Assembly: GCA_964540555.1 (NCBI GenBank)
Contig: CAZINF010000003.1
Span: forward strand, 1 to 55,617
DNA length: 55,617 nucleotides
Source: an uncultured Syntrophus sp.
GTDB lineage: Bacteria; Desulfobacterota; Syntrophia; Syntrophales; UBA5619
Direction: 5' to 3'
Part shown: in pieces, positions 39,450-55,600 of the stretch
Position numbering within the stretch: the first letter of the stretch is position 1
Layout: each line of letters opens with the position of its first letter
Program-made: the position numbers and the translations under genes
Notes under the pieces: model-generated
What the model was told of the DNA's origin: nothing
The model's database searches: none
What the model saw: the letters and a program-made list of their open reading frames with translations, nothing else

Positions 39450-42400
39450 TTATTGTTTCGTCCACGGATAGGTCGTCCGGATCACGTTCCGGTAGTTGTC
39501 GTCCAGGGATGGCTGCAAGGCAACAAGAACCGTGAGACGACGCGCCATTTCCGTGACGTAGCGGACTTCCTCCGGCGTCAAGCCTCGGCCGAGTAAGGGT
39601 TTCTCGCGGTACGAGAGCCACTTCTTGATGACCTGGTAACCGCCGATTGTGTAGCCCCAGACGGGTTGGGGAACGTTCCTCCAGCATGCGTTATCGTTAA
39701 GGAAAATGTCGCAGGCGCCGTCCTCCCGGCGGATCAGCTTCCCTTTGCCCGGCATGGTCACGCCACCTTTGCCGGCATGGCCCCATCCGGCGGTCAGATC
39801 CAAGTCGCCGGATTCAGGGTTCGCGGGTTTTCCGTCCACGCGCTGAAACAGAGCGATGTGCTTCAGGTCGTCACGAATCTTCCCGGCGGTCACGCCGGGA
39901 ACCGGCACTTCCGTATCCAGCAAGGCCGCCACCTGCCGACCGAGGGACGTGGAGGTGAGCAGCGAATCCTTCGCCTGCGGAAGCGGAATCCGCGGCCAGT
40001 CCTGGCGGATGCCGTCCGTGTTTTCGGCAAGATAGGCGGGCGAATAGCCGATGGCCAGCGCGTGATACCAGATCAATTCGGCGGTCTCCTGATCGGTGTC
40101 CGGGTCTGGCAGGTCAAGTGACGCCAGATAGGTGCGAGCCGAGGGGGACAGGTTGGCGGTGATCTTCTCCGATTCGGTTTCCATGCCCGGCAAGGTGTGA
40201 TTATCGACAGCTTGTCGGCTGAATCGGGTTGATGGCCCTGCGTTCAGACGGATCGGAAAGTGACGAGCATGACCGGAAATACAGTCATAATCACAGACAA
40301 CAGGCGAAAAGAAGAAGGGCGAGCCTTCTGGGTCTTTGTCGGCGGTGTCGCGAGTGATGAAAAACGCATTACCTTGAAAGCGTTGATTCAAAAGTTGCGG
40401 ACTTGGCTCGCTGAAAAGAGGACGCAAATTCTCCAGATAACACCACCGCACATCGTATGGTTTGAATGGATACCGGACGATACGAGATTCGTCGTATTGA
40501 AATTCACTTAAAACTTTCCGTCTTGCCTCGGGACCAACGATCCGGTTGCCGGTCATCATCAAAGGTGGGTAGATCCTCTCGATCTCCTCATTAGAAACTT
40601 CAGCATCGAAATATGAGGAGATCCGACCCGTAAGATGCTCTTTCGCCATGGAAATCAATGCGAATCCTCTACGTTCCACTGGACCGTTGTATGGAGGTGT
40701 CTTACAAAAATCGGTTAGTTTCGGCCATCCGAGATACGCGCTCGTAACATCCGATGGTCGAAAGCTCCAGCGGTTGTCAATTCTGGGTTTGGTCGTTTCG
40801 TATTGCACATCGAAGTCCTGAGCATTGAGGCTGGCAAGGAGATCGGTGCGTTTCGTCGCGCCCCAGAAATGGCGGAAATGGACAGCGGTCTCGCCATCCC
40901 GGAAACGGCTTCGCTTCACGAATAAACCAATGGTCGTGCCGACGCGGATGCCCTCGCGGTTCCATTCCGTCGAGAAGACCGACGGATCGGGTTTGCCGTC
41001 GGGTGTCAGCTTGCCCGTTTCACGGCTGTCGCCGTTCATGCAGTCTAGCCAGATGGCGTCGAACCCCTCCAGAAACCGCCGCCGCGCAACGACAAACGAG
41101 GGATCGCCCAGATAGGAAAAATTCGAGATGAACGACACGACGCCCCGACCTCCGACTTCAGCGATCCGCCGTTCTGCGAGCCGGAAGAAGCGGATGTAGA
41201 GATCGTCGAGATTGAACTTCTTGATGCCCCACTCGGAGATGAGGCCTTTTTTGTAAGGTTCGACCAGACCGTTTTCCTCCTCGGGACTGACACCGGCGAA
41301 GGCGTTGTAGGGCGGGTTGCCGAGGATGACCAGGATCGGCTTTTCCTGCTTCACTCGGCCGGCGGCGTCGCGTTCGTCGTCGAAACCGGGAAAGGCGATC
41401 TGTTTCGGCTTTTCCTTGGGCGGCTCCCAGCCGGTGAGGGCGTTGGTCAGATAGACCCCGACGCGTTCGGGAGGATCGCTGCGGTCGCTGAGCGGCGCAC
41501 CGAGGGTTTCGAGTTCCAGACCGAGCTGGAGATGAGCGATAACGAACGGTGCGGGCAGAATCTCAAAGCCGAAGACGCGCTCCATGGCGGCCTTCTTGAG
41601 ATCATTCGCAACCAGGGCGTCGCCGCCCTTGTCGTGCAGTGTAGCGGCGATGCGGCGGAGAACCGCCCGCAGATAGGCGCCGGTGCCGCAACAGGGATCG
41701 AGGACGATCACGTTCGGGTCCGTGAGTCCGTCGGCGAGACCGAGTTCGGAGCGGAGGACCGCGTCCACGCGTTCGACCTGGTAGCGGACGATCTCCTCGG
41801 GGGTGTACCAGACGCCGAGTTCCTTGCGCAATTCAGGATCGAACGCGTGCAGGAAGGGCTCATAGAAGTACTGGACTGCGTGCCCCTCGTCAAAGGACCG
41901 GAAGAACTCCACGCGGTCCACGCGATTCAGGGCGGCTGCGGTCCAGTCGAGAACTTCGATAAGGCCCAACGTGCCGAGACGGGCGGGGTCGGCGACTTGA
42001 ACGAAAAGGGCGCGGAGCATGGGAACGCGCAAGAGGTAATGGGCGGAGCGCCAGTCGAAGCCGCCGGCGACGGCATACGGCGCCGCCGTCTCTCGGAGGG
42101 CATCGGCAAATCCGGTTTTTTCACTCAGTTTGGCATCGCGCCGCCGCGCCCACAGGACCCAAGCCGAGAAGACGCCGTAAAAGAGGGTTTGAATGAGCGT
42201 CGAACGAAAAAAATGCTCGCCCTTCTCGCCTTCGAAACGCAGGCTGAGGGCGTCTTCGAGCGCCTGTCGAAGGCTGGTCAGGGCCGGGAGATCAGCTTGA
42301 TCGATGCGAAGCCTCGCGTCATGGGCATAGGAGGCGAGAATGCCGGCCACGTCTTGTGGAGCGGCCAGCGGTGCATTATGGAGCAGCACACGCTTCAAAT

Positions 42401-42932
42401 ACTCCAGCATGCGTTCGCCGTGTTCTGCCGACGCCCGGCGCGGCTGGGCGGTGAGACGCCAGAATTCGCCTTCGGACTCTGCCAGCGTGAAGGATTCCAG
42501 AACGCACGGTTGTCCGGTCGGGCCTTTCCCGATGAGGGCGAAGGCGCGGAAATTGGTCACAAGCACCATGCCGTACTTTTTCCAGTATCGCTCCACCTGC
42601 TCGGATCCGGCCACCCGGCGGACATCTTCAGACGGGGGTTTGGCTTCTATCACACCACGCGACGGGTTCTGAACCAGGAAGGGGTCCTCCTTGGCGTCCG
42701 CGCCGCGTGACTTGCGGTGGAACTGATCCGCGGAGAACAGGCCGCCGTCGGGAAGTCCGGCACCCCGGTTGGCAAGGTTGATGACGCAGCGGACCTTGGG
42801 GGAAAGACCTTTCCCTATGCCCGAGAGCAGCCGTTCCAACGCCGGATAGAACGAAGTCTCGGCCACGCTGGATCTTGTATCCCGAACTTCCCCCATCTCG
42901 GTCAGGTAACGTTCTATCAGGTTTTCGGGCAT
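39450..42932 (-). CDS. Large single-polypeptide N6-adenine DNA methyltransferase with N-terminal PD-ExK nuclease-like motif (type IIG/IIL or type ISP-related restriction-modification enzyme)
   Basis: 1160-aa ORF. SAM motif I is VLDPCCGTGAYL (about 41669-41710). Catalytic motif IV is NPPY (41318-41307, in LVILGNPPYNAF). The N-terminal candidate nuclease motif is GLPD (D62, 42749-42747) ... VIEAK (E96/K98, 42647-42639). The C-terminal WGYTIGGYQVIKKWLSYRE motif is, as I recall, seen in the type ISP/MmeI-like C-terminal domain. Confidence 0.7.
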   Translation of the reverse strand: MPENLIERYLTEMGEVRDTRSSVAETSFYPALERLLSGIGKGLSPKVRCVINLANRGAGLPDGGLFSADQFHRKSRGADAKEDPFLVQNPSRGVIEAKPPSEDVRRVAGSEQVERYWKKYGMVLVTNFRAFALIGKGPTGQPCVLESFTLAESEGEFWRLTAQPRRASAEHGERMLEYLKRVLLHNAPLAAPQDVAGILASYAHDARLRIDQADLPALTSLRQALEDALSLRFEGEKGEHFFRSTLIQTLFYGVFSAWVLWARRRDAKLSEKTGFADALRETAAPYAVAGGFDWRSAHYLLRVPMLRALFVQVADPARLGTLGLIEVLDWTAAALNRVDRVEFFRSFDEGHAVQYFYEPFLHAFDPELRKELGVWYTPEEIVRYQVERVDAVLRSELGLADGLTDPNVIVLDPCCGTGAYLRAVLRRIAATLHDKGGDALVANDLKKAAMERVFGFEILPAPFVIAHLQLGLELETLGAPLSDRSDPPERVGVYLTNALTGWEPPKEKPKQIAFPGFDDERDAAGRVKQEKPILVILGNPPYNAFAGVSPEEENGLVEPYKKGLISEWGIKKFNLDDLYIRFFRLAERRIAEVGGRGVVSFISNFSYLGDPSFVVARRRFLEGFDAIWLDCMNGDSRETGKLTPDGKPDPSVFSTEWNREGIRVGTTIGLFVKRSRFRDGETAVHFRHFWGATKRTDLLASLNAQDFDVQYETTKPRIDNRWSFRPSDVTSAYLGWPKLTDFCKTPPYNGPVERRGFALISMAKEHLTGRISSYFDAEVSNEEIERIYPPLMMTGNRIVGPEARRKVLSEFQYDESRIVRYPFKPYDVRWCYLENLRPLFSEPSPQLLNQRFQGNAFFITRDTADKDPEGSPFFFSPVVCDYDCISGHARHFPIRLNAGPSTRFSRQAVDNHTLPGMETESEKITANLSPSARTYLASLDLPDPDTDQETAELIWYHALAIGYSPAYLAENTDGIRQDWPRIPLPQAKDSLLTSTSLGRQVAALLDTEVPVPGVTAGKIRDDLKHIALFQRVDGKPANPESGDLDLTAGWGHAGKGGVTMPGKGKLIRREDGACDIFLNDNACWRNVPQPVWGYTIGGYQVIKKWLSYREKPLLGRGLTPEEVRYVTEMARRLTVLVALQPSLDDNYRNVIRTTYPWTKQ

Positions 42933-45523: not shown

Positions 45524-47887
45524 TTGTCCATGGATAAACCGATGACCAGACTTTTCATTGGATTGAAATCCGTTTCGAAATCGGGAACCTTAAAAACCGG
45601 CAGAAACTTGGCGATCTTATCAGGCATCGCGGCGCTCATCGGCCTGTGTCTGATCAGTCGTCACAATTACCTTTTGTTTCATGTTCTTGTTGAACTGTTC
45701 AGTATTGTCATCGGCGTGACCCTTTTCATCGTTGCCTGGAATTTACGGCGCACGATAACCAACCATTACATCCTGTTTGTCGGCATCGCCTATCTGTTTG
45801 TCGCCGTCCTGGATACCTTTCACACCCTGAGCTATAAGGGCATGGGCGTATTTGCGATCGACAGCGCCAATACCGCAACACAGCTTTGGATTGCCGCCCG
45901 GTTCCTCCAGAGCGCCTCTCTTCTCGCCGCCCCCTATTTCCTGAAACGCAAATTGAACAGCGAGGCAACGGTTTTTCTTTTCACCGTGTTTGCCGCTCTC
46001 ATCTTAGGTTCCATCTATCTCTGGAACTTCTTTCCCGCATGCTACATTGAGGGGAGAGGATTAACGCCCTTTAAGATTGCCGGCGAGTATATTATTTCTT
46101 CGATCCTCCTGATTGCCCTGATTTTTCTTTATAAGAATGGCTCCCATTTCGACGCCGTGGTGTTGCGATGGATCGGTGTCTCTATCGTTGCAACCATCGT
46201 CTCCGAACTGGCATTCACGTTTTACGTCGGTGTCTACGATGTTTCCAATCTGATCGGTCACTTTTTCAAGATCATCGCGTTTTACCTGATTTACAAGGCC
46301 GTCGTCAAAATGGCTTTCATCAAGCCTTACGATCTCCTGTTCAGAGATCTCATCCTGAAACAGGCGGCTCTCCAGGAAGAGAAAAAAAGGGCGCAAAGCT
46401 ACCTCGATATTGCGGGGATCATCGTCGTCCTCAATATGGATCAAACCATCGCCCTGATCAATAAATCAGGCTGTCGCCTCTTGGGATATGGGGAAAGAGA
46501 GGTGATCGGTAGAAACTGGTTCGACACGTTTATTCCTGAACGAATCAAGAATGAAGCGAAGGACGTCTTTTCAAACCTGATCACCGGCAACCTCGAAGGA
46601 ATCGATGTTTATGAAAACCTGATTCTGTCCGTAAGCGGTGAAGAGCGGTTGATCCGGTGGCAAAATAGCCTATTGAAGGACGAACACGGCCGGATCACCG
46701 GCACACTCAGCTCCGGCGAAGACATTACCGCGTGGAAAAAGGCCGAAGCGGAAAAGACGAATCTGGCCACCTTCCCCCAACTCAATCCGAATCCCGTTGT
46801 CGAAGTCGATCTGTCGGGGAAGGTCCACTTTCTCAATCCCGCCGCTGAGCGATTATTTCCCGATCTTCGCCGGCTCGGTCCCGCGCATCCCTGGCTGAAA
46901 GGTTGGGATGCCTGGCTCAGCGGCTTTCTCCGCGACAAGGGCCAGGAGGGGCAGAGGGAGATCGAAGTCGGCGAAAGATGGTTCAATCAAACGATGTATT
47001 TCGTCCATGCAATCGAACGGATCCGAATCTATGGGCTGGATATCACCAAGCGCAAGCGGGCAGAAGAAACGCTGCTGAATATCCATGAAGAACTGGAGCA
47101 GCGGGTCCGGGAACGCACGCTTCAACTCGACACGGTACAGAGGGCTTTACAGAAATCCCATGACGAACTGGAGCGCCGGGTGGAGGAGCGGACGGCCGAA
47201 CTTGAAGCCGCCAACAAGGAATTGGAAAGTTTCAGTTACTCCGTTTCCCATGACCTTCAGGCCCCCCTGCGCGCTATCGATGGGTATGCCCGCATGATCC
47301 TCAGGGATCATACGGATCAATTTGATGAAGATACGAAACAGAAATTCGGTACGATCAGACGCAACGCCCAGATGATGGGCCAGCTCATCAACGATCTTCT
47401 CGCCTTCTCACGCCTGGGTAGGCAGGAAGTCATACCGTCAAAGCTGGACATGGGCGGTCTTCTCAATGACGCGTGGAAAGAACTGCAGATGATCTATCCG
47501 GAAAGAAAAATGATCCTGGACGCCCAGGCGATGCCGCCCGCTTTTGGAGACAGGACGCTCATCAAGCAGGTGCTGCTCAATCTTCTTTCCAATGCCATCA
47601 AATTCACAAAATATCGCGAGTGCGCGAAAATTGAAGCTGGAGGATACGCCGATGGAAAACAGCTTGTCTATTATATCATCGATAATGGGGTCGGTTTCGA
47701 TATGACATACCACGATAAAATGTTCGGCGTGTTTCAGCGTCTCCACAGCAGTGACGAATTTGAAGGGACGGGGGTCGGCCTTGCGATCGTCGAACGCATC
47801 ATCCATCGTCATGGCGGGCGTGTATGGGCGGAAGGCATGCCGGACCGAGGCGCATCCTTCTATTTTTCCCTGACAAAAAAGGAGTGA
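45524..47887 (+). CDS. Sensor histidine kinase: multi-pass membrane N-terminal domain (MASE3-like), PAS region(s), HisKA, HATPase_c
   Basis: 787-aa ORF with about 7 TM segments at the N-terminus. The H-box is SYSVSHDLQAPLRAI. The N, G1 and G2 boxes are in LLSNAIKF...DNGVGF...GTGVGLAIV. Confidence 0.85.
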   Translation: MSMDKPMTRLFIGLKSVSKSGTLKTGRNLAILSGIAALIGLCLISRHNYLLFHVLVELFSIVIGVTLFIVAWNLRRTITNHYILFVGIAYLFVAVLDTFHTLSYKGMGVFAIDSANTATQLWIAARFLQSASLLAAPYFLKRKLNSEATVFLFTVFAALILGSIYLWNFFPACYIEGRGLTPFKIAGEYIISSILLIALIFLYKNGSHFDAVVLRWIGVSIVATIVSELAFTFYVGVYDVSNLIGHFFKIIAFYLIYKAVVKMAFIKPYDLLFRDLILKQAALQEEKKRAQSYLDIAGIIVVLNMDQTIALINKSGCRLLGYGEREVIGRNWFDTFIPERIKNEAKDVFSNLITGNLEGIDVYENLILSVSGEERLIRWQNSLLKDEHGRITGTLSSGEDITAWKKAEAEKTNLATFPQLNPNPVVEVDLSGKVHFLNPAAERLFPDLRRLGPAHPWLKGWDAWLSGFLRDKGQEGQREIEVGERWFNQTMYFVHAIERIRIYGLDITKRKRAEETLLNIHEELEQRVRERTLQLDTVQRALQKSHDELERRVEERTAELEAANKELESFSYSVSHDLQAPLRAIDGYARMILRDHTDQFDEDTKQKFGTIRRNAQMMGQLINDLLAFSRLGRQEVIPSKLDMGGLLNDAWKELQMIYPERKMILDAQAMPPAFGDRTLIKQVLLNLLSNAIKFTKYRECAKIEAGGYADGKQLVYYIIDNGVGFDMTYHDKMFGVFQRLHSSDEFEGTGVGLAIVERIIHRHGGRVWAEGMPDRGASFYFSLTKKE

Positions 47888-47893
47888 CATTTC

Positions 47894-48340
47894 TTGATGA
47901 ATATGATCGAGATCCTGATCATTGAAGATAATCGTCAGGACGAAGTGATGATTCTGGACGCCTTCCGTGAGCAAAACATCCATGACAAGATCCGTGTCCT
48001 TCATGACGGGGAGGAAGCGCTGGATTATTTTTTTGGCCCTCATGGTTGCCTTCGGAAGGCAGACATCTGGCATCCCAAATTCGTCCTGCTCGATTTAAAG
48101 CTTCCCAAGGTCGGCGGCCTGGAAGTTCTAAAATGCTTAAAATCCGATGAGCGGGCCAGGAACATCCCCATCATCATATTTACTTCATCGAATGAAGCGA
48201 AGGATCGAAACGAAAGCTACCGGCTGGGGGCCAACAGTTATATCGTAAAGCCCATGGATGCGGATTGTTTTTCACGTTTTGTCGTCGACATCGCCTCTTA
48301 TTGGCTCATGATGAACAGGACCCCCTATCAGGAGGCGTAG
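47894..48340 (+). CDS. Stand-alone response regulator receiver protein
   Basis: 148-aa ORF with the REC motifs EDN..D, VLLDLKLP and IIFTSS...K. Confidence 0.85.
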   Translation: MMNMIEILIIEDNRQDEVMILDAFREQNIHDKIRVLHDGEEALDYFFGPHGCLRKADIWHPKFVLLDLKLPKVGGLEVLKCLKSDERARNIPIIIFTSSNEAKDRNESYRLGANSYIVKPMDADCFSRFVVDIASYWLMMNRTPYQEA

Positions 48341-48389
48341 CCTCGGCATGTGATCATCCCATTCACCGGGAAAGGATAGATGTTGAACC

Positions 48390-49259
48390 ATGGAAAAAAG
48401 AGAATTGCATATATTGATCCTGGAAGATGTAACGACGGACGCCGAACTGATCAAGGATGAACTCAGGGAGGCCGGCACGGTCTTCACGCCGAGTTGCGTT
48501 AAGGACAAGGTGTCTTATCTCAAAGCCTTGGACGAATTTTCACCGGATATTATTCTCTCGGATTATTCCTTGCCGTCCTTCGACGGGATGTCGGCGCTGA
48601 AGCTCGCCGGGAGAAAATGTCCGGACGTGCCCTTCATTTTCGTCTCGGGGGCGCTGGGCGAGGAAACGGCCATCGAACTGCTTAAGCAGGGGGCGACGGA
48701 TTATGTACTGAAGAGCCGGTTGTCCCGTCTAAACCCGGCCGTCTCCCGGGCGCTCCAGGAAGTAAAGGAACGAAAAGAACGGAAAATGGCGGAGGAGGAG
48801 CTGAAAAAAAGGGAGCAGGCTCTGGAATTGAAATCCCGAAGCCTTGAGGAGGCCAATACGGCATTGAAGGTCTTGCTTCGACACCGGGAGGAAGACAAAG
48901 CTGCCCTTGAAGAACAGGTATTAGCCAATGTTCGAAAACTGGTTCTACCGTACCTTGAAAACCTGAAACATCTTAACTTAAATGAAAAGCAAGTCGCTCA
49001 GGTTAAAATTGCCGAGGAGAATCTGAAGAAGATCGTGTCTCCATTTTTACGCAATCTGGCATCGCGCTATCTCGAACTGACCCCGAGAGAGATTCAGGTG
49101 GCCAACTTTGTCAAAGAGGGAAAGACCACCAAGGAGATGACCGAGATTCTCAACATATCGGCAACGGCCGTGGACTTTCACAGGAAGAACCTCCGTTCCA
49201 AATTCGGTATCAAAAACAAAAAAACCAATCTGCTGGCCTTTCTTTCTTCCCTCTCCTGA
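48390..49259 (+). CDS. Response regulator: REC domain, coiled-coil linker, LuxR/GerE-type HTH
   Basis: 289-aa ORF. REC is LILEDV...ILSDYSLP. The C-terminal LTPREIQVANFVKEGKTTKEMTEILNISATAVDFHRKNLRSKFG is a LuxR-type HTH. Confidence 0.85.
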   Translation: MEKRELHILILEDVTTDAELIKDELREAGTVFTPSCVKDKVSYLKALDEFSPDIILSDYSLPSFDGMSALKLAGRKCPDVPFIFVSGALGEETAIELLKQGATDYVLKSRLSRLNPAVSRALQEVKERKERKMAEEELKKREQALELKSRSLEEANTALKVLLRHREEDKAALEEQVLANVRKLVLPYLENLKHLNLNEKQVAQVKIAEENLKKIVSPFLRNLASRYLELTPREIQVANFVKEGKTTKEMTEILNISATAVDFHRKNLRSKFGIKNKKTNLLAFLSSLS

Positions 49260-49260
49260 C

Positions 49261-49312
49261 TGGTAGATTTTACCTACCATTAGCCATCCATTCAATCCTC
49301 ATTGTTTTCCAT
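49261..49312 (+). promoter_or_regulatory. Conserved hairpin-plus-box element, copy B (TGGTAG-loop-CTACCA, 15 nt, ATCCTCATTGTTTTCCAT)
   Basis: It starts 2 nt after the LuxR-type regulator stop and ends 57 nt before the glycogen-synthase-like ATG. It matches copy A at 45059-45113. Confidence 0.45.
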
Positions 49313-49368
49313 CTCCCTGGATACTAAAGTATGACCAACACAAAACTGCATAAGGGTGAAAGCTCAAC

Positions 49369-50904
49369 ATGTCATCTGAATTTCTCGATCGTCATCCAAA
49401 AAAAACGGCAGTTCTCCTGATTGCACCCGAGACGGGCCGTCTGCCGAATGGAATGGGGCCTCTGGCCAGGTTTATCTCCGGCAAGAGCGGCGGTATGGGC
49501 GATGTGATCTCAACCCTTTGCGAAGGCCTGACGCGCCGGGGTGTTGAGTGTCATCTTGCCACGCTGAACCTGACCAAACGTTTCCAGCAGGAGAATAATC
49601 TGAACGATGATCAGTGGGACAGGATTATCCACACTATCGACCCGGGGCACATCCATCTGGTGAACTCCGCCATATTCGACAATCTTTCCGATGCCTATGC
49701 CGGAAATGCCGTTCTGAGCGCCGCCGAGTTCCAGAAGATTCTCGTCAATCAGATCATCACGAATATCCGCGCCAGAAACAGAGGTCGCCTCATCATTCAC
49801 AGCCATGACTGGATGGCGGGGGGTGTCATCACTGCGGATGCAAAGCTGCGGGGATGCCCGGTGCTTCATACACTCCACAATGTTCACACGGCCCATATCC
49901 CCCTGGACCTCTTTGTAGGCGTCGATACGGGAAAGGTATCCGATTACCTCTATCGCTCCGAGGACCGGGGGAAAGCGTCCATTGATTGCCAAGCCACGGC
50001 GATCAAGAATGCCAATCTGGTCAATTTTGTGGGGGCCCGCTTTCTCAAAGAAATCGTCGATGACCAATTTGCCGATCGACCTATCATTCCCCAAAGCGTT
50101 CGCCGGGAAGTCAAGGTAAAGTATGATCATGGCGAGACCCGCACGATCATCAACGCCCCGGCTCTGAATATGTACCCCGAATATGGCGAGCATCTGATAC
50201 GGAAATATGGCCCCGAGGATGACGTCATCGCTGCCAAGCGGGAAAACCTCGTAGAGTTTCAGAAGAGGACCGGGCTCAACGTGAACCCCGAAGCCATCCT
50301 TTTATATTGGCCGTCCCGCCTGGACCCCTCTCAAAAAGGGATCGAACTCCTCGAGACGATCGCCCGACAGTTTGTCACCACCCATGGAGATTCGCAAATC
50401 GCCATCGTCGGCAACGGCGTAGGCAATGATCGGACCCACGAAGAGATATGCGGAAGAATCGCATGCGCCTCCGGGGGTAAGATCACCTACCAACGCTTCA
50501 GCGAGCCGCTGTCGATGCTGGGCTTTGCCGCGGCCAACGATGTGTTCGGCGCTTCTTTGTATGAACCCTGCGGCCAGATCGATCAGATCGGAAATCTTTT
50601 CGGGGCAACAGCCACAAACCGTGATACGGGGGGCTATCATGACAAGATCCAGGAGATGGCCCTGATGAGCGATGGCGCATCGGAAGACTCCGGCAACGGT
50701 TTCCTTTTCAAGGATTATGACACAGGGGGGCTATGGTACGGGCTGTCCAGGACAGTCCAGTTTCACCGGCGTTCTCCGGAAATCCGGGAAAGGCAAATCA
50801 AGCGGATAATGAAAGAAACCAGGCAGAGACACGATCCCGAGCGGATGATCGACGGATATATCCGTGTCTACGAGGAGCTGAACGGCGGAGTGCCCCTTGC
50901 GTAG
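49369..50904 (+). CDS. glgA: Glycogen/starch synthase-like glycosyltransferase (GT5)
   Basis: 511-aa ORF with the K-x-G-G-x-G-D-V motif (GKSGGMGDVISTL), HSHDWMAG, and a C-terminal GT-B half with ASLYEPCGQ. Confidence 0.75.
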   Translation: MSSEFLDRHPKKTAVLLIAPETGRLPNGMGPLARFISGKSGGMGDVISTLCEGLTRRGVECHLATLNLTKRFQQENNLNDDQWDRIIHTIDPGHIHLVNSAIFDNLSDAYAGNAVLSAAEFQKILVNQIITNIRARNRGRLIIHSHDWMAGGVITADAKLRGCPVLHTLHNVHTAHIPLDLFVGVDTGKVSDYLYRSEDRGKASIDCQATAIKNANLVNFVGARFLKEIVDDQFADRPIIPQSVRREVKVKYDHGETRTIINAPALNMYPEYGEHLIRKYGPEDDVIAAKRENLVEFQKRTGLNVNPEAILLYWPSRLDPSQKGIELLETIARQFVTTHGDSQIAIVGNGVGNDRTHEEICGRIACASGGKITYQRFSEPLSMLGFAAANDVFGASLYEPCGQIDQIGNLFGATATNRDTGGYHDKIQEMALMSDGASEDSGNGFLFKDYDTGGLWYGLSRTVQFHRRSPEIRERQIKRIMKETRQRHDPERMIDGYIRVYEELNGGVPLA

Positions 50905-50925
50905 TAGACGGCGTCTAAGTGAATT

Positions 50926-51034
50926 TTCCCTTCCTTGGCGGGAGGGGATTAAGGGGAGGGGGATGGAACACGTTGAAATCCAGTTACTTTCGACTCCCAC
51001 CCTAACCCTCCCCCGTCGAGGGGGAGGGGTTTTG
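50926..51034. repeat. G/C-rich imperfect palindromic REP-like element ending in a terminator-like hairpin
   Basis: Inverted copies of a CCCTCCCC...TAA..CCC unit occur at 50926-50975 and 50995-51034. The core hairpin is CCCTCCCCC (51006-51014), GTCGA, GGGGGAGGG (51020-51028), followed by GTTTT. It lies just after the glgA-like stop. Confidence 0.55.
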
Positions 51035-51082
51035 GACAGGGGCTAAACATGTCATATCTTTTTTAAGAAAGGAGGCAGGAAA

Positions 51083-51538
51083 ATGTATAAGAAAGTTTTG
51101 GTTCCGTTGGATGGTTCAGATTTGGCCGAGTGCATGTTGTCACACCTCAAATCCCTCTTCAAGGATGGATCGGTGGGAGAGGTGACCCTCTTGAATATCG
51201 TCACCATCGATATCCCTTGGGGAGACTTGGAGGGCGGGCACTTCGACTTAGAGGCACTCAGAAAACAGGTCTTCACAATATCAAAAAATTACCTTGCAAA
51301 AGTGGAATCCCGACTGAGTCCCGAAGGGATAAAGGTAAAAACGGTGTCCGTGGAGGCCAACAGGCCTGCCGAGACGATCATGGATTATGCCAAGAAAAAC
51401 GGCACGGAACTGATCATCATGGCGACCCACGGTTATACAGGATTCAAGAGGCTGATGCTGGGGAGCGTGGCGTCCGGTGTCCTGAATCAGTCCGCTGTTC
51501 CCATACTCTTAATCAGGCCGGAAGCCTGCCGCCTGTAG
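51083..51538 (+). CDS. Universal stress protein (UspA family)
   Basis: 151-aa ORF: MYKKVLVPLDGSDLAE... and the C-terminal LIIMATHGYTGFKRLMLGSVASGVLNQSAVPILLIR. Confidence 0.9.
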   Translation: MYKKVLVPLDGSDLAECMLSHLKSLFKDGSVGEVTLLNIVTIDIPWGDLEGGHFDLEALRKQVFTISKNYLAKVESRLSPEGIKVKTVSVEANRPAETIMDYAKKNGTELIIMATHGYTGFKRLMLGSVASGVLNQSAVPILLIRPEACRL

Positions 51539-51547
51539 CAATAGCCG

Positions 51548-51588
51548 CGGGTATGAACCCTCCGGCAGGGCTGGAGGGTTCATACCCG
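51548..51588 (+). terminator. Perfect 16-bp stem-loop after usp (no T-tract)
   Basis: CGGGTATGAACCCTCC (51548-51563), a 9-nt loop, then GGAGGGTTCATACCCG (51573-51588). Confidence 0.5.
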
Positions 51589-51725
51589 GGCAAGCTCGGG
51601 AAGAGGATGCGCGAATAACCTTCCCCGAAATGGTTTACGGGCTACGGTGACAGCGTGTGACCCAAGAAGCTGTGAAACCGACCTTCCTGGAAGCGACCGG
51701 GGAAAGACCCCATCTAAGGTGACCT

Positions 51726-52004
51726 ATGAAAGAAAGGATTGAAAAAAGAAGGATATGCTTCAGGTATCTTGACCCGGAGGCCGAGGCGGTATTTTTGTCC
51801 GGAGGCTTCAACGGATGGAATCCTGAAGCAAACCCCATGAGGAAAAACAGAGAAGGCGTCTGGTCGACTGTTGTGAACCTCTTCCCCGGGATCTACGAAT
51901 ACCGGTTCATCGTTGATGGTCTATGGAAGAACGATCCGGCTTGCGATCAATATCATTTGAACCAATATGGCAGCCATAACTGCATATTGACAGTCACCCG
52001 GTAA
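51726..52004 (+). CDS. Stand-alone glycogen-binding module (CBM48 / AMPK-beta-like E-set domain)
   Basis: 92-aa ORF. FRYLDPEAEAVFLSGGFNGWNPEANPMRKN.EGVWSTVVNLFPGIYEYRFIVDGLWKNDP is the CBM48 pattern. Confidence 0.75.
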   Translation: MKERIEKRRICFRYLDPEAEAVFLSGGFNGWNPEANPMRKNREGVWSTVVNLFPGIYEYRFIVDGLWKNDPACDQYHLNQYGSHNCILTVTR

Positions 52005-52215: not shown

Positions 52216-52590
52216 ATGACCAAACAGACAGGAATTTATAAATGTACAGTGTGCGGGAATATCGTTGAAGTGGTTCACGCAGGCGACGGGGAACTGGTAT
52301 GTTGCGGCCAGCCGATGCAATTGTTGAGGGGAAATACCACTGATGCCTCGCGTGAGAAGCATGTTCCCGTTATCGAGAAAATGCCGGACGGAGTGAAGGT
52401 GAAGGTGGGAAGCGTAGCCCACCCCATGGAGGAGAAACACTATATCGAGTGGATCGAGATGATTGCCGACGGCAAAGTCTGCCGGCAGTTTCTCAAACCC
52501 GGTCAGGCGCCGGAAGCCGACTTTCCCGTGAAAGCTACTGCAATGACAGCGCGGGCATACTGCAACCTGCACGCGCTGTGGAAGTCCTGA
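52216..52590 (+). CDS. dfx: Desulfoferrodoxin (2Fe superoxide reductase)
   Basis: It has the desulforedoxin-type CxxC...CC centre (CTVCGN...VCCGQ) and centre II ligands ([23 protein letters not shown]). The ATG at 52216 follows AAGGAGAAG. Confidence 0.9.
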
Positions 52591-52621
52591 TTTACTCTAG
52601 ACGTATTGAGAGGTGTTGGGT

Positions 52622-52864
52622 ATGAAAGGGCCTGTCAAAGCCGTCAGGACGCTCGACTGCATGGGACTGTATTGCCCCGAGCCGCTGTTCCAGACACGGG
52701 AGAATATTGACCAGATCAAGCCGGGCGAGATTCTGGAGGTCATCACAGACGACCCGGCGGCGGAGGAGGATCTCAAGAGGTTCGCCAAGCGTGCGGGCCA
52801 CGAGGTTGTGTCCTTTGATAAGGACGACGACCGCATGCGATTCTTGATCAAGAGGAGTGTGTGA
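52622..52864 (+). CDS. tusA: TusA/SirA-family sulfurtransferase
   Basis: It has the CPxP active-site motif (LDCMGLYCPEPLF) and an ~80-aa two-layer alpha/beta size. The ATG is at 52622; the ORF track starts at a GTG at 52613. Confidence 0.85.
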   Translation: MKGPVKAVRTLDCMGLYCPEPLFQTRENIDQIKPGEILEVITDDPAAEEDLKRFAKRAGHEVVSFDKDDDRMRFLIKRSV

Positions 52865-52908
52865 CCATTCGTGGGGGTCACGACCGACCAGAAAAGGAGA
52901 TGATAGGC

Positions 52909-53271
52909 ATGCCAGAGAAGAAGTTTATCCTGTATGTTCAGACGAGTGACGCGCCCGAGAGGCAGTATTCGCCCCTGGTGCTGGCGCAGACGGCCACGGC
53001 CATGGCGCTCGATTCCAAGATCTACTACCTGGGCATGGGGCTCAAGATCCTGCTGCCCGGCGCGGCCGAAGCTATTAAGATGGGGTCGTTCCCGACCGTG
53101 AAGGAGATGATGGACAAGGCCATGAAGATGGGCGTTGAGTTTTACGCTTGCGAGGCATCCAAGCAGATGCTGGGCTGGGACAAGGTCACGCTCATCCCCG
53201 GCGTCAAGATCGTCGGCGCGGGTACGCTCAATGACCTCGCGCTCGATGCGGGCGCCGCGATGTGGTTTTAA
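52909..53271 (+). CDS. DsrE/DsrF-like family protein (putative sulfur-relay protein)
   Basis: A protein of about 120 aa starting MPEKKFILYVQTSD, with a conserved Cys in FYACEAS. The start at 52909 follows AAAAGGAG. Confidence 0.65.
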   Translation: MPEKKFILYVQTSDAPERQYSPLVLAQTATAMALDSKIYYLGMGLKILLPGAAEAIKMGSFPTVKEMMDKAMKMGVEFYACEASKQMLGWDKVTLIPGVKIVGAGTLNDLALDAGAAMWF

Positions 53272-53280
53272 GAGAGAGGT

Positions 53281-54462
53281 TTGGAATGCCCGCGCAGGTC
53301 TACCTGGACTACCAATCGTCGAAGCCTGTCTGATCCCCGAGTAGTCGACGCGATGCGCCCCTGGTTTACCGAGCGCTTCGGCAACCCCAGTTCGCTGCAC
53401 CTCGACGGCGACGAGGCCACTGACGCCCTCGAGAGGTCCCGTGATAGGGTTGCGCAGTTCATCGGCGCGACCAAGGACGAGATCATCTTCACATCGGGTG
53501 CGACCGAGTCGAACAACCTTGCCATTATCGGATACGTCACACGCAACCGCAGGCGAGGCGACCATGTCGTCATCGCGGAAAGCGAGCACATCTCGGTCCA
53601 CAACATCGCCAAGGCAATAGAAAAACAGGGCTTCAAGGTCAGTAAGGTGGGGGTTGACCAGTATGGCCGGGTAAGCGTCGAGAAACTCCGAAAGAAGATC
53701 ATCGACACGACAATCCTCGTGAGCATCGGCTGGGCGAGCAGCGAGATCGGCACCGTCCAGCCCATGCAGGAGATCGCCGATGTGCTGCACGGCAAGGGCA
53801 TCGCGCTGCACAGCGACGCGGTTGCGGCCGAGGGGCTCGTGCTTATCGACGTGAGCAAAGTCGCTGTCGACCTGCTGACTCTCTCCGCCAACGACCTCTA
53901 TGGCCCCAAGGGCCTGGGCGCACTCTACATCAGGAAGAACGTGAACATCGCGCCGATTATGCCGGGCGGCGGCCAGGAGAAAGGTTTGCGATCCGGTAGC
54001 GAAGCCATGCCCGCCATCGTGGGCATGGCGGCCGCAGCGGACATCATGGCCTCCGAGATGCCGGCGGAGGCGCCCAGGCTCGCGCAGTACCGCGACCGGC
54101 TCATCGAGGGGGTGCTCGGCCGGATTCCCAAGTCGTATCTCAACGGACACCCCCGGGAGAGGCTCCCCAGCAATGCGCACTTTCGGTTCGATGCCATCGA
54201 GGGCGAGTCGTTGCTGCTGTCCCTGAAGGACAAGGGCATCGCCGCCTCGACAGGCTCCGCCTGCTCGTCGAAGACCCTCGAGCCCTCGCACACGCTCATC
54301 TCCTGCGGGCTGCTCCACGAGGAGGCGCACGGCTCGCTGGAGTTCACCTTCGGCAGGTGGAGCAGGCCCACCGACGTGGACCGCGTGCTTGAGGTCCTGC
54401 CAGGCATCGTCGAGAGGTTGCGCAGTCTATCACCACTCTACGAGAAAGAGGTAAAGGCATGA
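53281..54462 (+). CDS. iscS: NifS/IscS-type class V aminotransferase-fold protein lacking the PLP-binding lysine; 5' end frameshifted
   Basis: It has GATESNNLAI, SEH, HSDA and the persulfide-loop GSACSS. The SxHK motif reads SAND (53884-53895). The SD-preceded ATG at 53286 gives MPAQVYLDYQSSKPV then TGA (53331). The long ORF continues in the +1 frame with DPRVVDAM. Confidence 0.8.
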   Translation: MECPRRSTWTTNRRSLSDPRVVDAMRPWFTERFGNPSSLHLDGDEATDALERSRDRVAQFIGATKDEIIFTSGATESNNLAIIGYVTRNRRRGDHVVIAESEHISVHNIAKAIEKQGFKVSKVGVDQYGRVSVEKLRKKIIDTTILVSIGWASSEIGTVQPMQEIADVLHGKGIALHSDAVAAEGLVLIDVSKVAVDLLTLSANDLYGPKGLGALYIRKNVNIAPIMPGGGQEKGLRSGSEAMPAIVGMAAAADIMASEMPAEAPRLAQYRDRLIEGVLGRIPKSYLNGHPRERLPSNAHFRFDAIEGESLLLSLKDKGIAASTGSACSSKTLEPSHTLISCGLLHEEAHGSLEFTFGRWSRPTDVDRVLEVLPGIVERLRSLSPLYEKEVKA

Positions 54463-55268
54463 AGTCGACCAGCTACAGCGAGAAGACGCTCGACCACTTC
54501 CGCAACCCACGCAATGTGGGCACCCTTGAAGGCCCTGACGTGGCCGTAGGCAAGGTGGGCAACCCCGTCTGCGGCGACCTGATGTATATGTACATCCGCG
54601 TCGGCGATAACCGTATCGCGGACATCAAGTTCCAGACATTCGGCTGCGGTTCGGCCGTCGCCACGTCGAGCATGACGACCGAGCTTGTGAAGGGGATGAC
54701 CCTCGACGAAGCGATGAAGGTCACCCGCGGTGACGTCGCCGACGCCCTGGAAGGTCTGCCGCCGATCAAGATGCACTGCTCCAACCTGGCCGCGGATGCG
54801 CTCCACAACGCCATCCAGTCGTGGCGTGAGGGCCGCCGCGGGGAAACGCCGGAGTCCCCCAAGGCCGGCGAATTCCGCACCTCCTGCGGGTTGCCCGTGA
54901 CCAAACCACCCGCCATCGAAGGTGCAGAAGCGCTGCTCGGCAAGGGCGTCTACCGTAGGGTCGAGGATCCAGGGGCGTTTGTCGACAAGAGGGTCCTGAT
55001 CGTCGACAGGGGCAAACCCTCCGTCGATGTGGCGCTCGATCTGACCAAGCACACGGGCAGGGTGATCTTCATCTCCTCGACCAAAGAGCCCTCTTCCAAG
55101 GACGACCCGCGCGCTCCGCTCAAGCGGTCGGACGTGAAGGTCATCTACGAGGCCGAGCCCATCGCCGTCCTGGGTGAGGGTGAGGTAGAGAAGGTCCGTG
55201 TGCATGATATTAACGAAAACGAGGAGTACGAGCTGTTTATCGACGCTGTTGTGATACTCAGTCTCTAA
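54459..55268 (+). CDS. iscU: IscU/NifU-N-type Fe-S scaffold fused to a degenerate thioredoxin-reductase-like (pyridine-nucleotide oxidoreductase NAD-domain-like) C-terminal segment
   Basis: The IscU ligands are present (GNPVCGD, FGCGSAVATSS, MHCSNLAADAL). The C-terminal ~120 aa (GKGVYRRVEDPGAFVDKRVLIVDRGKPSVDVALDLTKHTGRVIFI...VEKVRVHDINENEEYELFIDAVVI) align in pattern with the TrxB NADPH domain but lack its CxxC and GxGxxA. Confidence 0.7.
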   Translation: MKSTSYSEKTLDHFRNPRNVGTLEGPDVAVGKVGNPVCGDLMYMYIRVGDNRIADIKFQTFGCGSAVATSSMTTELVKGMTLDEAMKVTRGDVADALEGLPPIKMHCSNLAADALHNAIQSWREGRRGETPESPKAGEFRTSCGLPVTKPPAIEGAEALLGKGVYRRVEDPGAFVDKRVLIVDRGKPSVDVALDLTKHTGRVIFISSTKEPSSKDDPRAPLKRSDVKVIYEAEPIAVLGEGEVEKVRVHDINENEEYELFIDAVVILSL

Positions 55269-55342: not shown

Positions 55343-55600
55343 ATGGAAATGAAGAAATTTACAATGGTATTGGTCTTTGTCGGAGTCATGGTTTTTGGGA
55401 TTAGTACAGCTATGGGTATGCATCATGCAATTAAAATTCAAGAAAAGGAGGGAATAGGAAAATATCTTACCGATACTGAAGGGAAAGCCTTATACTGGTT
55501 TAAAAAAGATTCTCCTGGGAAAAGCGCTTGTACTGGCCCTTGTTTAGAAAAATGGCCCATATATCCCATCTTTACCACTTTAATTGCCAAGCATAGGTAA
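55343..55600 (+). CDS. Small exported protein of the COG4315-like 'secreted repeat' type (possibly truncated)
   Basis: It has a signal peptide, then LTDTEGKALYWFKKDSPGKSACTGPCLEKWP. This is the Y-x-F-x-x-D plus C-x-x-x-C-x-x-x-WP pattern. The ORF ends shortly after the motif, near the window edge, in low-GC sequence. Confidence 0.5.
   Translation: MEMKKFTMVLVFVGVMVFGISTAMGMHHAIKIQEKEGIGKYLTDTEGKALYWFKKDSPGKSACTGPCLEKWPIYPIFTTLIAKHR

Follow-up and report, generated by a model that had tools for sequence, protein, structure and literature searches.

Two sulfur-carrier genes linked to a lysine-less IscS and IscU in an uncultured Syntrophus: a candidate iron-sulfur cluster assembly module

Five genes at positions 52216-55268 (+ strand) of a 55,617-nucleotide (nt) stretch of DNA from an uncultured Syntrophus sp. 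(contig CAZINF010000003.1) encode the superoxide reductase Dfx, the sulfur carrier TusA, a DsrE-like protein, an IscS-like protein with Asp in place of the Schiff-base lysine, and the scaffold protein IscU. The whole stretch is referred to here as the window, and the claims of an earlier note on the five genes are weighed below. Four of the genes, tusA-dsrE-iscS(Asp)-iscU, recur together in bacteria and archaea, and the evidence leans, if not heavily, towards their being a module for assembling iron-sulfur (Fe-S) clusters, one of the Archaeoglobus fulgidus-type or 'MIS' lineage, in which a dead IscS would act as platform and sulfane sulfur would enter via the carriers. Such a relay has genomic support, and its biochemical transfer step is a predicted one.

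To our knowledge, every well-studied Fe-S machine (ISC, NIF, SUF) begins with cysteine desulfuration dependent on pyridoxal phosphate (PLP). The A. fulgidus IscS-IscU complex has served as a structural model of cluster assembly for more than ten years, and reviews still ask how a dead desulfurase suffices. The clade-specific coupling of a dead IscS to two persulfide carriers offers a testable answer on the sulfur source, and points to a way in which anaerobes, among them lineages close to eukaryote origins, could bring inorganic or sulfane sulfur into Fe-S clusters. The earlier note knew of no described system of this composition, which holds for part of it: a description of the IscS(Lys->Asp)-IscU core exists in A. 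fulgidus IscS2-IscU, whereas full-text literature searches, whose coverage did not extend to Garcia et al. 2022 and Pagnier et al. 2015, returned no paper on the linkage of TusA and DsrE to a Lys-less IscS-IscU pair or on its oxygen-defence context.

Sulfur-carrier genes accompany the Asp-type IscS

Three homologues of the window IscU that were looked up in distant lineages all lie in tusA-dsrE-iscS-iscU blocks with unrelated flanks. A forward scan of one genome per species, scored with hidden Markov models built from the cassette proteins, covered 80 loci, nine with an Asp-type IscS (Actinobacteria, Thor- and Promethearchaeota, Bathyarchaeales and Methanomethyliaceae) and 71 with a Lys-type IscS. 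tusA lies directly upstream in all nine Asp-type loci and is joined by dsrE in seven, whereas neither gene was found within 6 kb of iscS at any of the 71 Lys-type loci. Seven further Asp-type loci were reached starting from A. fulgidus IscS2. A. fulgidus itself has a dsrE-like gene 10 nt upstream of iscS2; a second dsrE lies about 6 kb away, as do two tusA genes, ThiS/ThiF and a Pyr_redox_2 gene. The order is tusA-iscS-iscU in Ferroglobus and Geoglobus, and tusA-dsrE-iscS-iscU in each of three bins, from Hadesarchaea, an Archaeoglobi-like lineage and 'Thaumarchaeota'. Altogether, the arrangement tusA-dsrE-iscS(Asp)-iscU is shared by Desulfobacterota/Syntrophales-like bacteria, Actinobacteria, Asgard archaea, Bathyarchaeia, Hadesarchaea and Archaeoglobi. 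Among the loci seeded on IscS or IscU, tusA and/or dsrE stands directly upstream in 22 of 23 Asp-type cases versus none of 71 Lys-type cases (Fisher p = 1.5e-20, a value that overstates independence because the loci are mutually related).

The reverse test was seeded on the DsrE-like protein and covered 80 metagenome loci, all at 70% identity or more, with the following arrangements.

tusA-dsrE-iscS-iscU: 33 of 80 DsrE-seeded loci
tusA-dsrE-iscS, ending after iscS: 4 of 80
dsrE-tusA-iscS(-iscU): 7 of 80
tusA-dsrE, interrupted by the contig end: 9 of 80
dsrE-tusA without iscS: 9 of 80
dsrE alone: 18 of 80

A recognisable IscS stands beside the carriers in 44 of these loci, and wherever its motif is readable it is of the Asp type (42 of 42). 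The carriers are mostly, but not only, used with the Asp-type IscS module. A DsrE-like subfamily dedicated to the cassette is ruled out by the 18 loci with dsrE alone and the nine dsrE-tusA pairs without iscS, some of which are cut by contig ends. Because about one third of the close DsrE-like homologues lack IscS, the carriers are not dedicated to the module, although the earlier note had called them dedicated.

In L109 (1598-3715) and L110 (1290-3407) an IscS-free homologue precedes a gene for a 706-residue thioredoxin-like DUF255 (Thioredox_DsbH) protein, and other such homologues are followed by tusA only. The DsrE/SirA pair of Methanococcus voltae has the same DsrE-then-TusA arrangement (PMC9431491).

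Organisation of the locus in the window

The genes and the parts of their products are arranged as follows.

52216..52590, +: dfx, two-iron superoxide reductase (desulfoferrodoxin), 124 amino acids (aa); TIGR00320, PF06397, PF01880
52622..52864, +: tusA, sulfur-carrier protein, 80 aa; PF01206; active-site Cys in GLYCPEP
52909..53271, +: dsrE-like, single-Cys sulfur-carrier candidate, 120 aa; PF02635, PF13686
53286..54462, +: iscS-like, Asp type (A. fulgidus IscS2 type); PF00266; frame broken at 53331
53331..53333, +: frameshift site; owing to an extra T at 53331, a TGA falls in frame behind codon 15 of the canonical reading frame
54459..54833, +: iscU, scaffold domain, residues 1-125; PF01592; Cys38, Asp40, Cys63, His106, Cys107
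54834..54905, +: IscU linker, residues ~126-149, predicted to be disordered, with a nearly invariant Cys143
54906..55268, +: IscU C-terminal domain, residues ~150-269, resembling the NAD(P)H-binding domain of low-Mr thioredoxin reductase

All five genes are co-directional, separated in order by 31, 44 and 14 nt, with iscS and iscU overlapping by 4 nt. No terminator-like site was found between the genes of the block, the sole + strand match (53247-53259) falling inside the 3' end of dsrE. The coordinates and profile matches bear out the earlier note in its five co-directional genes with short gaps or overlaps and in the identities it gave them, namely a superoxide reductase, a TusA with a CPxP motif, a DsrE-like protein with a conserved Cys, an IscS-like protein and an IscU.

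The IscS-like protein has a dismantled desulfurase site

The IscS-like protein has the type I (IscS/NifS-like) aminotransferase class V fold (PF00266, 226 bits), and its best matches in the PDB are structures of A. fulgidus IscS2, on its own or bound to IscU (4EB5, 4EB7 and 4HVK; 2.4e-135; 4EB5 chain A over residues 17-388), with a full-length identity to A. fulgidus IscS2 of about 55%. The Schiff-base motif reads SAND, compared with SSND in A. fulgidus and SGHK in E. coli IscS, such that Lys206 (E. coli numbering here and below) is replaced by Asp at codon 53893-53895, equivalent to Asp199 of A. fulgidus. The mobile-loop Cys328 is retained (codon 54262-54264) within the loop STGSACSSKTLE. The earlier description of an IscS-like protein that has lost the aldimine Lys and kept its loop Cys is thereby confirmed.

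The remainder of the active site is altered as well. The window protein keeps His104 and Asp180 along with Cys328, and bears Ala for Gln183, Asn for His205 and Glu for Arg354. All Asp-type relatives likewise keep His104, Asp180 and Cys328, and across them Gln183 is replaced by Ala or Pro, His205 by Asn or Trp, Lys206 by Asp, and the substrate-binding Arg354 by Glu, Leu or Gln. Since Arg354, Gln183 and His205 are lost besides Lys206, a normal PLP-dependent desulfurase reaction is very unlikely and the protein is predicted to be catalytically dead as a cysteine desulfurase. A canonical NifS or IscS identity is ruled out by these four replaced catalytic or PLP-site residues together with scores below the equivalog cutoffs for NifS (TIGR03402, 441 vs 530.75) and IscS (TIGR02006, 351 vs 643.2). 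In a neighbour-joining tree of 129 loci, the 58 Asp-type sequences group in a single clade that contains none of the Lys type.

The lysine is absent from 21 of the 150 closest IscS cluster representatives (50% identity), where the position holds D, A, S, P, G, T, Q, R or M; because nine different residues occur there, Lys-less IscS-like proteins are, as far as their sequences tell, a diverse group. The non-Asp representatives (P0247, P0254, P0259, P0271, P0274, P0296, P0332, P0339, P0341 and others) have Ala, Ser, Pro, Gly, Thr, Gln, Arg or Met for the Schiff-base Lys; most of them also lack Gln183 and Arg354 while retaining the loop Cys, and they are presumably inactive IscS paralogues.

IscU retains its cluster ligands and carries a conserved C-terminal domain

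IscU comprises 269 residues, with NifU_N covering residues 1-124 (PF01592, 152 bits; PDB 7C8M, 1.4e-52; 4EB5 chain C, 7.8e-48) and some 145 additional residues following. The ligand residues Cys38, Asp40, Cys63, His106 and Cys107 that characterise an IscU/NifU-N scaffold are invariant in 38-40 homologues, and the TIGR03419 score (181.8) is slightly under the cutoff of 187.9. In an AlphaFold2 model (mean predicted local distance difference test score, pLDDT, of 85.5), the IscU domain is joined by a disordered linker (pLDDT below 50 at residues 132-148) to a confidently predicted alpha/beta domain with ten-residue pLDDT means of 87-95. Cys143 within the linker is conserved in at least 90% of homologues.

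The C-terminal domain matches TIGR01292 over residues 152-266 (3.9e-10), although with a score of 39 against a cutoff of 343, and its best Foldseek match is the thioredoxin reductase-like 2ZBW (30% identity, root-mean-square deviation 2.4 A, 120 columns). It has the fold of the NADPH domain alone and lacks the FAD domain, the GxGxxG motif and the CxxC motif of low-Mr thioredoxin reductases. The position of GxGxxG is occupied by D-x-G-x-x-S/A with a nearly invariant Asp, and the HRR-type phosphate site is absent. In the window protein the motif positions read D-R-G-K-P-S and Y-R-R-V-E-D. G163, R178, G185, A192, R201, K227, G239, E253, Y257 and D262 are invariant, and D183 is nearly so. A working NADPH-binding reductase is unlikely given the absence of the FAD domain, the phosphate site and the CxxC, together with the Asp at the first Rossmann Gly, and the domain is probably not a nicotinamide-dependent reductase.

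The earlier note had called this domain a thioredoxin reductase relic. The resemblance is correct for the NADPH-domain fold; the idea of a relic is not, as the domain is conserved and confidently folded. Indeed, a decaying remnant is ruled out by the invariant residues, the high pLDDT and the more than 100 full-length homologues listed at 60-92% identity, which come from Syntrophales, Deltaproteobacteria, Actinobacteria and Thermoleophilia bins, the domain itself being found from bacteria to Asgard archaea. It is present in Desulfobacterota-like bacteria, Actinobacteria and Asgard archaea, and absent from Archaeoglobi, Bathyarchaeia, Hadesarchaea and several metagenome lineages. The extra domain is a conserved accessory that varies between lineages, and could be a docking surface.

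Both candidate carriers keep their active-site cysteine

TusA (PF01206, 90.8 bits) has the CPEP active site that corresponds to the Cys-Pro-x-Pro of the family, and scores 61 against the E. coli TusA equivalog cutoff of 78. No variation occurs in the motifs D..GL.CP.P and DDP among 13 cassette TusA proteins and E. coli TusA, and the two Ala residues after DDP are nearly invariant. The DsrE-like protein belongs to the DsrE family (PF02635, 52.9 bits; PF13686, 55.9 bits; both above cutoffs), and its closest solved structure is the DsrE/DsrF-like protein 3MC3 (1.5e-10). Its single Cys, within YACEAS, is the Cys of a CEAS motif and is invariant from bacteria to A. fulgidus. At 34.5 bits against a cutoff of 210, the protein lies far below the DsrE2 equivalog NF047629. 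In the window block and in every cassette examined there is only one DsrE-family gene, with no adjacent dsrF/tusC or dsrH/tusB, and no tusE is linked to the DsrE-like gene in the cassettes.

Oxygen-defence genes are frequent neighbours

Dfx is a complete two-iron superoxide reductase with an N-terminal FeS4 domain and a neelaredoxin-type Fe(His)4Cys domain (TIGR00320, 213 bits vs cutoff 146.9; PF06397 and PF01880 also match), and both the centre I motif (CxxC...CC) and the His/Cys ligands of centre II are legible in its sequence. When all flanking open reading frames (ORFs) of 60 cassette loci were clustered into families, Dfx emerged as the most recurrent neighbour, present in 15 loci and always on the cassette strand. 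It directly adjoins the cassette in 12 of these, including the window, either upstream of tusA or downstream of iscU, and lies about 4-5 kb downstream in the other three. Rubrerythrin follows with 10 loci, and a second rubrerythrin-like family, a flavin reductase-rubredoxin fusion and a flavodiiron protein with five each. Of 26 Asp-type lineages (counted at 80% IscS identity), 11 have at least one oxygen-defence gene within 6 kb, versus 2 of 71 Lys-type loci, a contrast confounded by the Lys-type set being mostly from aerobes.

A fixed fifth place for dfx is ruled out, since the closest relatives found through IscU have electron-transfer flavoprotein genes upstream and elsewhere dfx stands downstream of iscU. 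Dfx is a frequent associate of the cassette, not a core member; its varying position and its occurrence with bacterial and archaeal cassettes alike speak for its having been recruited repeatedly. The co-occurrence of five genes, which the earlier note had put forward for checking, is therefore borne out across phyla for tusA-dsrE-iscS(Asp)-iscU but not for dfx, and the protective part given to Dfx is matched by oxygen-defence genes, Dfx among them, being the commonest neighbours of the module, if not by a constant presence of dfx.

In loci from several lineages (L150, L151, L154, L158, L106, L168, L173 and L010-L012) the cassette sits inside a block of anaerobe oxygen-defence genes, which encode peroxiredoxin, Dfx, flavodiiron protein, two types of rubrerythrin and a flavin reductase-rubredoxin fusion; directly upstream in L173 is a gene for an FTR1 iron permease.

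Comparison with known systems

The closest counterpart is A. fulgidus IscS2-IscU (AF0564/AF0565; PDB 4EB5, 4EB7, 4HVK), which has the same Ser-x-Asn-Asp motif at the IscS identity given above and likewise a loop Cys, an IscU with canonical ligands directly downstream and a dsrE-like gene directly upstream; the D199K variant of IscS2 is PDB 4R5F. The two systems differ in host (archaeal versus bacterial), in the distance of tusA (about 6 kb versus within the block), in the adjacency of dfx, which is on the window side, and in IscU, which has 153 residues in A. fulgidus and an added domain of about 120 residues, resembling the NADPH domain of thioredoxin reductase, in the window. A. fulgidus IscS has no desulfurase activity, binds pyridoxamine phosphate, and provides its loop Cys as a ligand to a [2Fe-2S] cluster on IscU; the literature treats its sulfur source as open, with sulfide as one proposal (PMC8918507, PMC7585200). 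In the published A. fulgidus work that was available, we found no mention of the neighbouring carrier gene.

After the A. fulgidus cluster ThiS-ThiF-TusA-DsrE-TusA-Pyr_redox_2, about 6 kb upstream of iscS2 (AE000782, locus L087, 45-3241), come a FeoB fragment and a DtxR-type repressor domain. This gene group might act as a second relay of sulfur, from which the missing TusA could come.

The minimal iron-sulfur system MIS (MisS-MisU; Garcia et al. 2022, as summarised in PMC13066941), which is distributed in archaea and anaerobic bacteria, shares with the window module a two-gene IscS-like/IscU-like core and the lack of chaperones, ferredoxin and A-type carrier (PMC13066941). While the core pair agrees with the published definition of MIS, the dead active site and the two linked carrier genes do not, as MIS is described with a cysteine desulfurase and no extra carrier protein, and a 2026 review names no carrier protein for it (PMC13066941).

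The same three families (IscS, TusA and DsrE) also make up the E. coli route from IscS through TusA to TusBCD for tRNA 2-thiouridine. IscS, TusA and TusD are the first three proteins of this relay, and a physical complex of E. coli IscS and TusA is known from the IscS complex structures of the 3LVJ-3LVM group, which is among the PDB matches of the IscS-like protein. In E. coli, however, the sulfur derives from PLP-dependent cysteine desulfuration and flows away from IscS, and TusD acts within the TusBCD heterohexamer, whereas the DsrE-like protein of the window is a lone, single-Cys protein with no linked TusB, TusC, TusE or MnmA. TusA and single-Cys DsrE-family genes also stand side by side in sHdr/rDsr sulfur oxidisers, where sulfane or thiosulfonate sulfur is thought to be passed from Cys to Cys (PMC11094781). 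There, TusA, DsrE3 and DsrE2 feed dissimilatory enzymes (sHdr, DsrC/DsrAB), whereas the linked acceptor in the window is an Fe-S scaffold pair; in addition, the window DsrE-like protein falls below the DsrE2 equivalog cutoff. SMS (SufB*-SufC) likewise assembles Fe-S clusters in anaerobes without a cysteine desulfurase, although its scaffold proteins are unrelated to those of the window module. We know of no sulfur carriers for SMS. Its assembly works on sulfide (bioRxiv 10.1101/2024.03.20.586028).

A possible route for sulfur and its alternatives

The module would be a four-gene Fe-S cluster assembly unit, a bacterial member of the A. fulgidus-type IscS-IscU pair within the 'MIS' lineage. By homology to the A. 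fulgidus structures, IscS(Asp) is predicted to form a dimeric platform that holds IscU, with its mobile-loop Cys as fourth ligand of a nascent [2Fe-2S] cluster. Sulfur would enter as protein-bound sulfane sulfur, the DsrE-like protein and TusA taking up persulfide, polysulfide or thiosulfate-derived sulfur and passing it from Cys to Cys to the IscS loop and on to IscU, in what amounts to a reversal of the E. coli route from IscS via TusA to TusD. The clade-specific linkage is what suggests this transfer. As the module is often placed among genes for oxygen detoxification (Dfx, rubrerythrin, flavodiiron protein, rubredoxin reductase), it may serve strict anaerobes in Fe-S assembly or repair during oxygen intrusion, the moment when sulfide would be oxidised to sulfane sulfur; this placement suggests an anaerobe counterpart of the stress-dedicated SUF system. 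A more ambitious proposal, to which we give rather less than even credence, is that TusA and the single-Cys DsrE are dedicated donors of a desulfurase-independent Fe-S pathway that has the dead IscS and IscU as its base, is ancient, extends widely through anaerobic Bacteria and Archaea (Asgard archaea and Archaeoglobi among them) and is wired into their oxygen-stress response. If so, the pathway would channel sulfane sulfur from the contact of sulfide with oxygen into the rebuilding of clusters, answer the question of sulfur for A. fulgidus IscS-IscU and add carriers to the 'minimal' MIS.

Several points weigh against a carrier-fed assembly module. We infer the direction of flow, from DsrE/TusA to the IscS Cys and then IscU, from genomic linkage, the loci behind that linkage are related to one another, and the oxygen-defence contrast has the aerobe bias noted above. 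On one archaeal contig neither tusA nor dsrE lies within 5 kb of the Asp-type IscS-IscU pair (L172, 5001-6571), the sole exception among the 23 loci; a third or so of the close DsrE-like homologues have no IscS beside them and stand singly or paired with TusA; the iscS frame is broken in the window copy; and free sulfide alone may suffice, by analogy with SMS. This last point leads to an alternative that we consider unlikely though worth serious weight, in which IscS(Asp)-IscU would use Fe2+ and ambient sulfide directly to build clusters; TusA and DsrE, not being obligatory donors, would be accessories that keep reactive sulfane sulfur buffered or detoxified, or else control how IscS and IscU interact. 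For A. fulgidus, sulfide was the hypothesised source (PMC8918507), the minimal SUF system likewise functions on it (bioRxiv 10.1101/2024.03.20.586028; PMC13066941), DsrE4-type proteins have been proposed as detoxifiers of reactive sulfur species (PMC11094781), and both the carrier-free pair of L172 and the location of the module among stress-defence genes would fit. A carrier adjacency confined to one clade (22 of 23 versus 0 of 71) is nevertheless hard to explain if it has no bearing on the missing function. If sulfide entered freely, moreover, the loop Cys would not have to stay invariant just to act as a ligand; this argument is weak, as a ligand role alone could conserve it. Alternatively, the carriers could load sulfur at the IscS platform and take it outwards to tRNA thiolation or to molybdenum cofactor or thiamine synthesis, the sulfur stemming perhaps from a cluster on IscU or from sulfide that the loop Cys has captured. 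The opening of the E. coli 2-thiouridine relay by IscS, TusA and the DsrE homologue TusD is compatible with this, as are a thiI gene that precedes the Geoglobus cassette and the ThiS and ThiF genes beside the nearby TusA and DsrE genes of A. fulgidus. We hold it to be improbable, since the cassettes contain no TusB, TusC, TusE or MnmA genes, IscU is always present with its cluster ligands intact, and a dead desulfurase has no evident means of generating a persulfide to hand on.

A different explanation concerns the state of the module in this genome. The canonical iscS start, ATG 53286, has good ribosome-binding-site spacing and encodes MPAQVYLDYQSSKPV, a normal IscS N-terminus, before the TGA at 53331-53333, and the rest of the reading frame is displaced by one base. 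The 393-aa iscS ORF taken in the earlier note begins at TTG 53281, just 1-2 nt from the ribosome-binding site and hence implausibly spaced, and the note overlooked the extra T. This T is unique to the window among 11 aligned sequences and missing from all 10 close relatives, and it lies outside the homopolymer runs typical of long-read errors. If the insertion is real, the module would be decaying in the window genome, with iscS(Asp) a fresh pseudogene, or else made minus its first 15 residues. However, the 377 codons that remain after the insertion are intact, the whole protein is 84% identical to its nearest intact relative, and the genes flanking iscS are unbroken. No breaks were seen in other long Pfam-matched genes of the window (TctC, TctA, AFOR, histidine kinase, Type ISP enzyme, GHMP kinase, NTP transferase), which likewise give no sign of general assembly errors. 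Of the two origins of the extra T, a real frameshift or a single assembly error, the latter is at least as likely. Decay is about as doubtful an account as outward flow, and it would bear on the window copy alone, not on the nature of the module.

Genomic surroundings of the block

Upstream of dfx (window 45524-52004) lie genes for a MASE3-PAS histidine kinase, a universal stress protein and a small glycogen-binding protein of the CBM48/AMPK type, together with two that were assigned by reading without a profile scan, namely a response regulator whose C-terminal part is putatively of the LuxR type and a 511-aa ORF that is putatively glycogen-synthase-like. The response-regulator family recurs close to the cassette in four loci. 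On the 3' side of iscU (55343-55600) a gene for a Lipoprotein_15-repeat protein is interrupted by the end of the window; a gene of this family is also found near the cassette in the closest relatives (L001, 13794-14213), beside a methionine sulfoxide reductase (PMSR-SelR).

The G+C content of the window alternates in blocks between about 0.60-0.63 and about 0.50-0.55 (10-16, 26-28, 36-40 and 44-52 kb). A 1160-aa Type ISP restriction-modification enzyme (N6_Mtase and Type_ISP_C; 39450-42932, - strand) is encoded in a lower-G+C stretch, and the cassette, at about 0.57-0.60, adjoins the low-G+C regulatory and glycogen genes.

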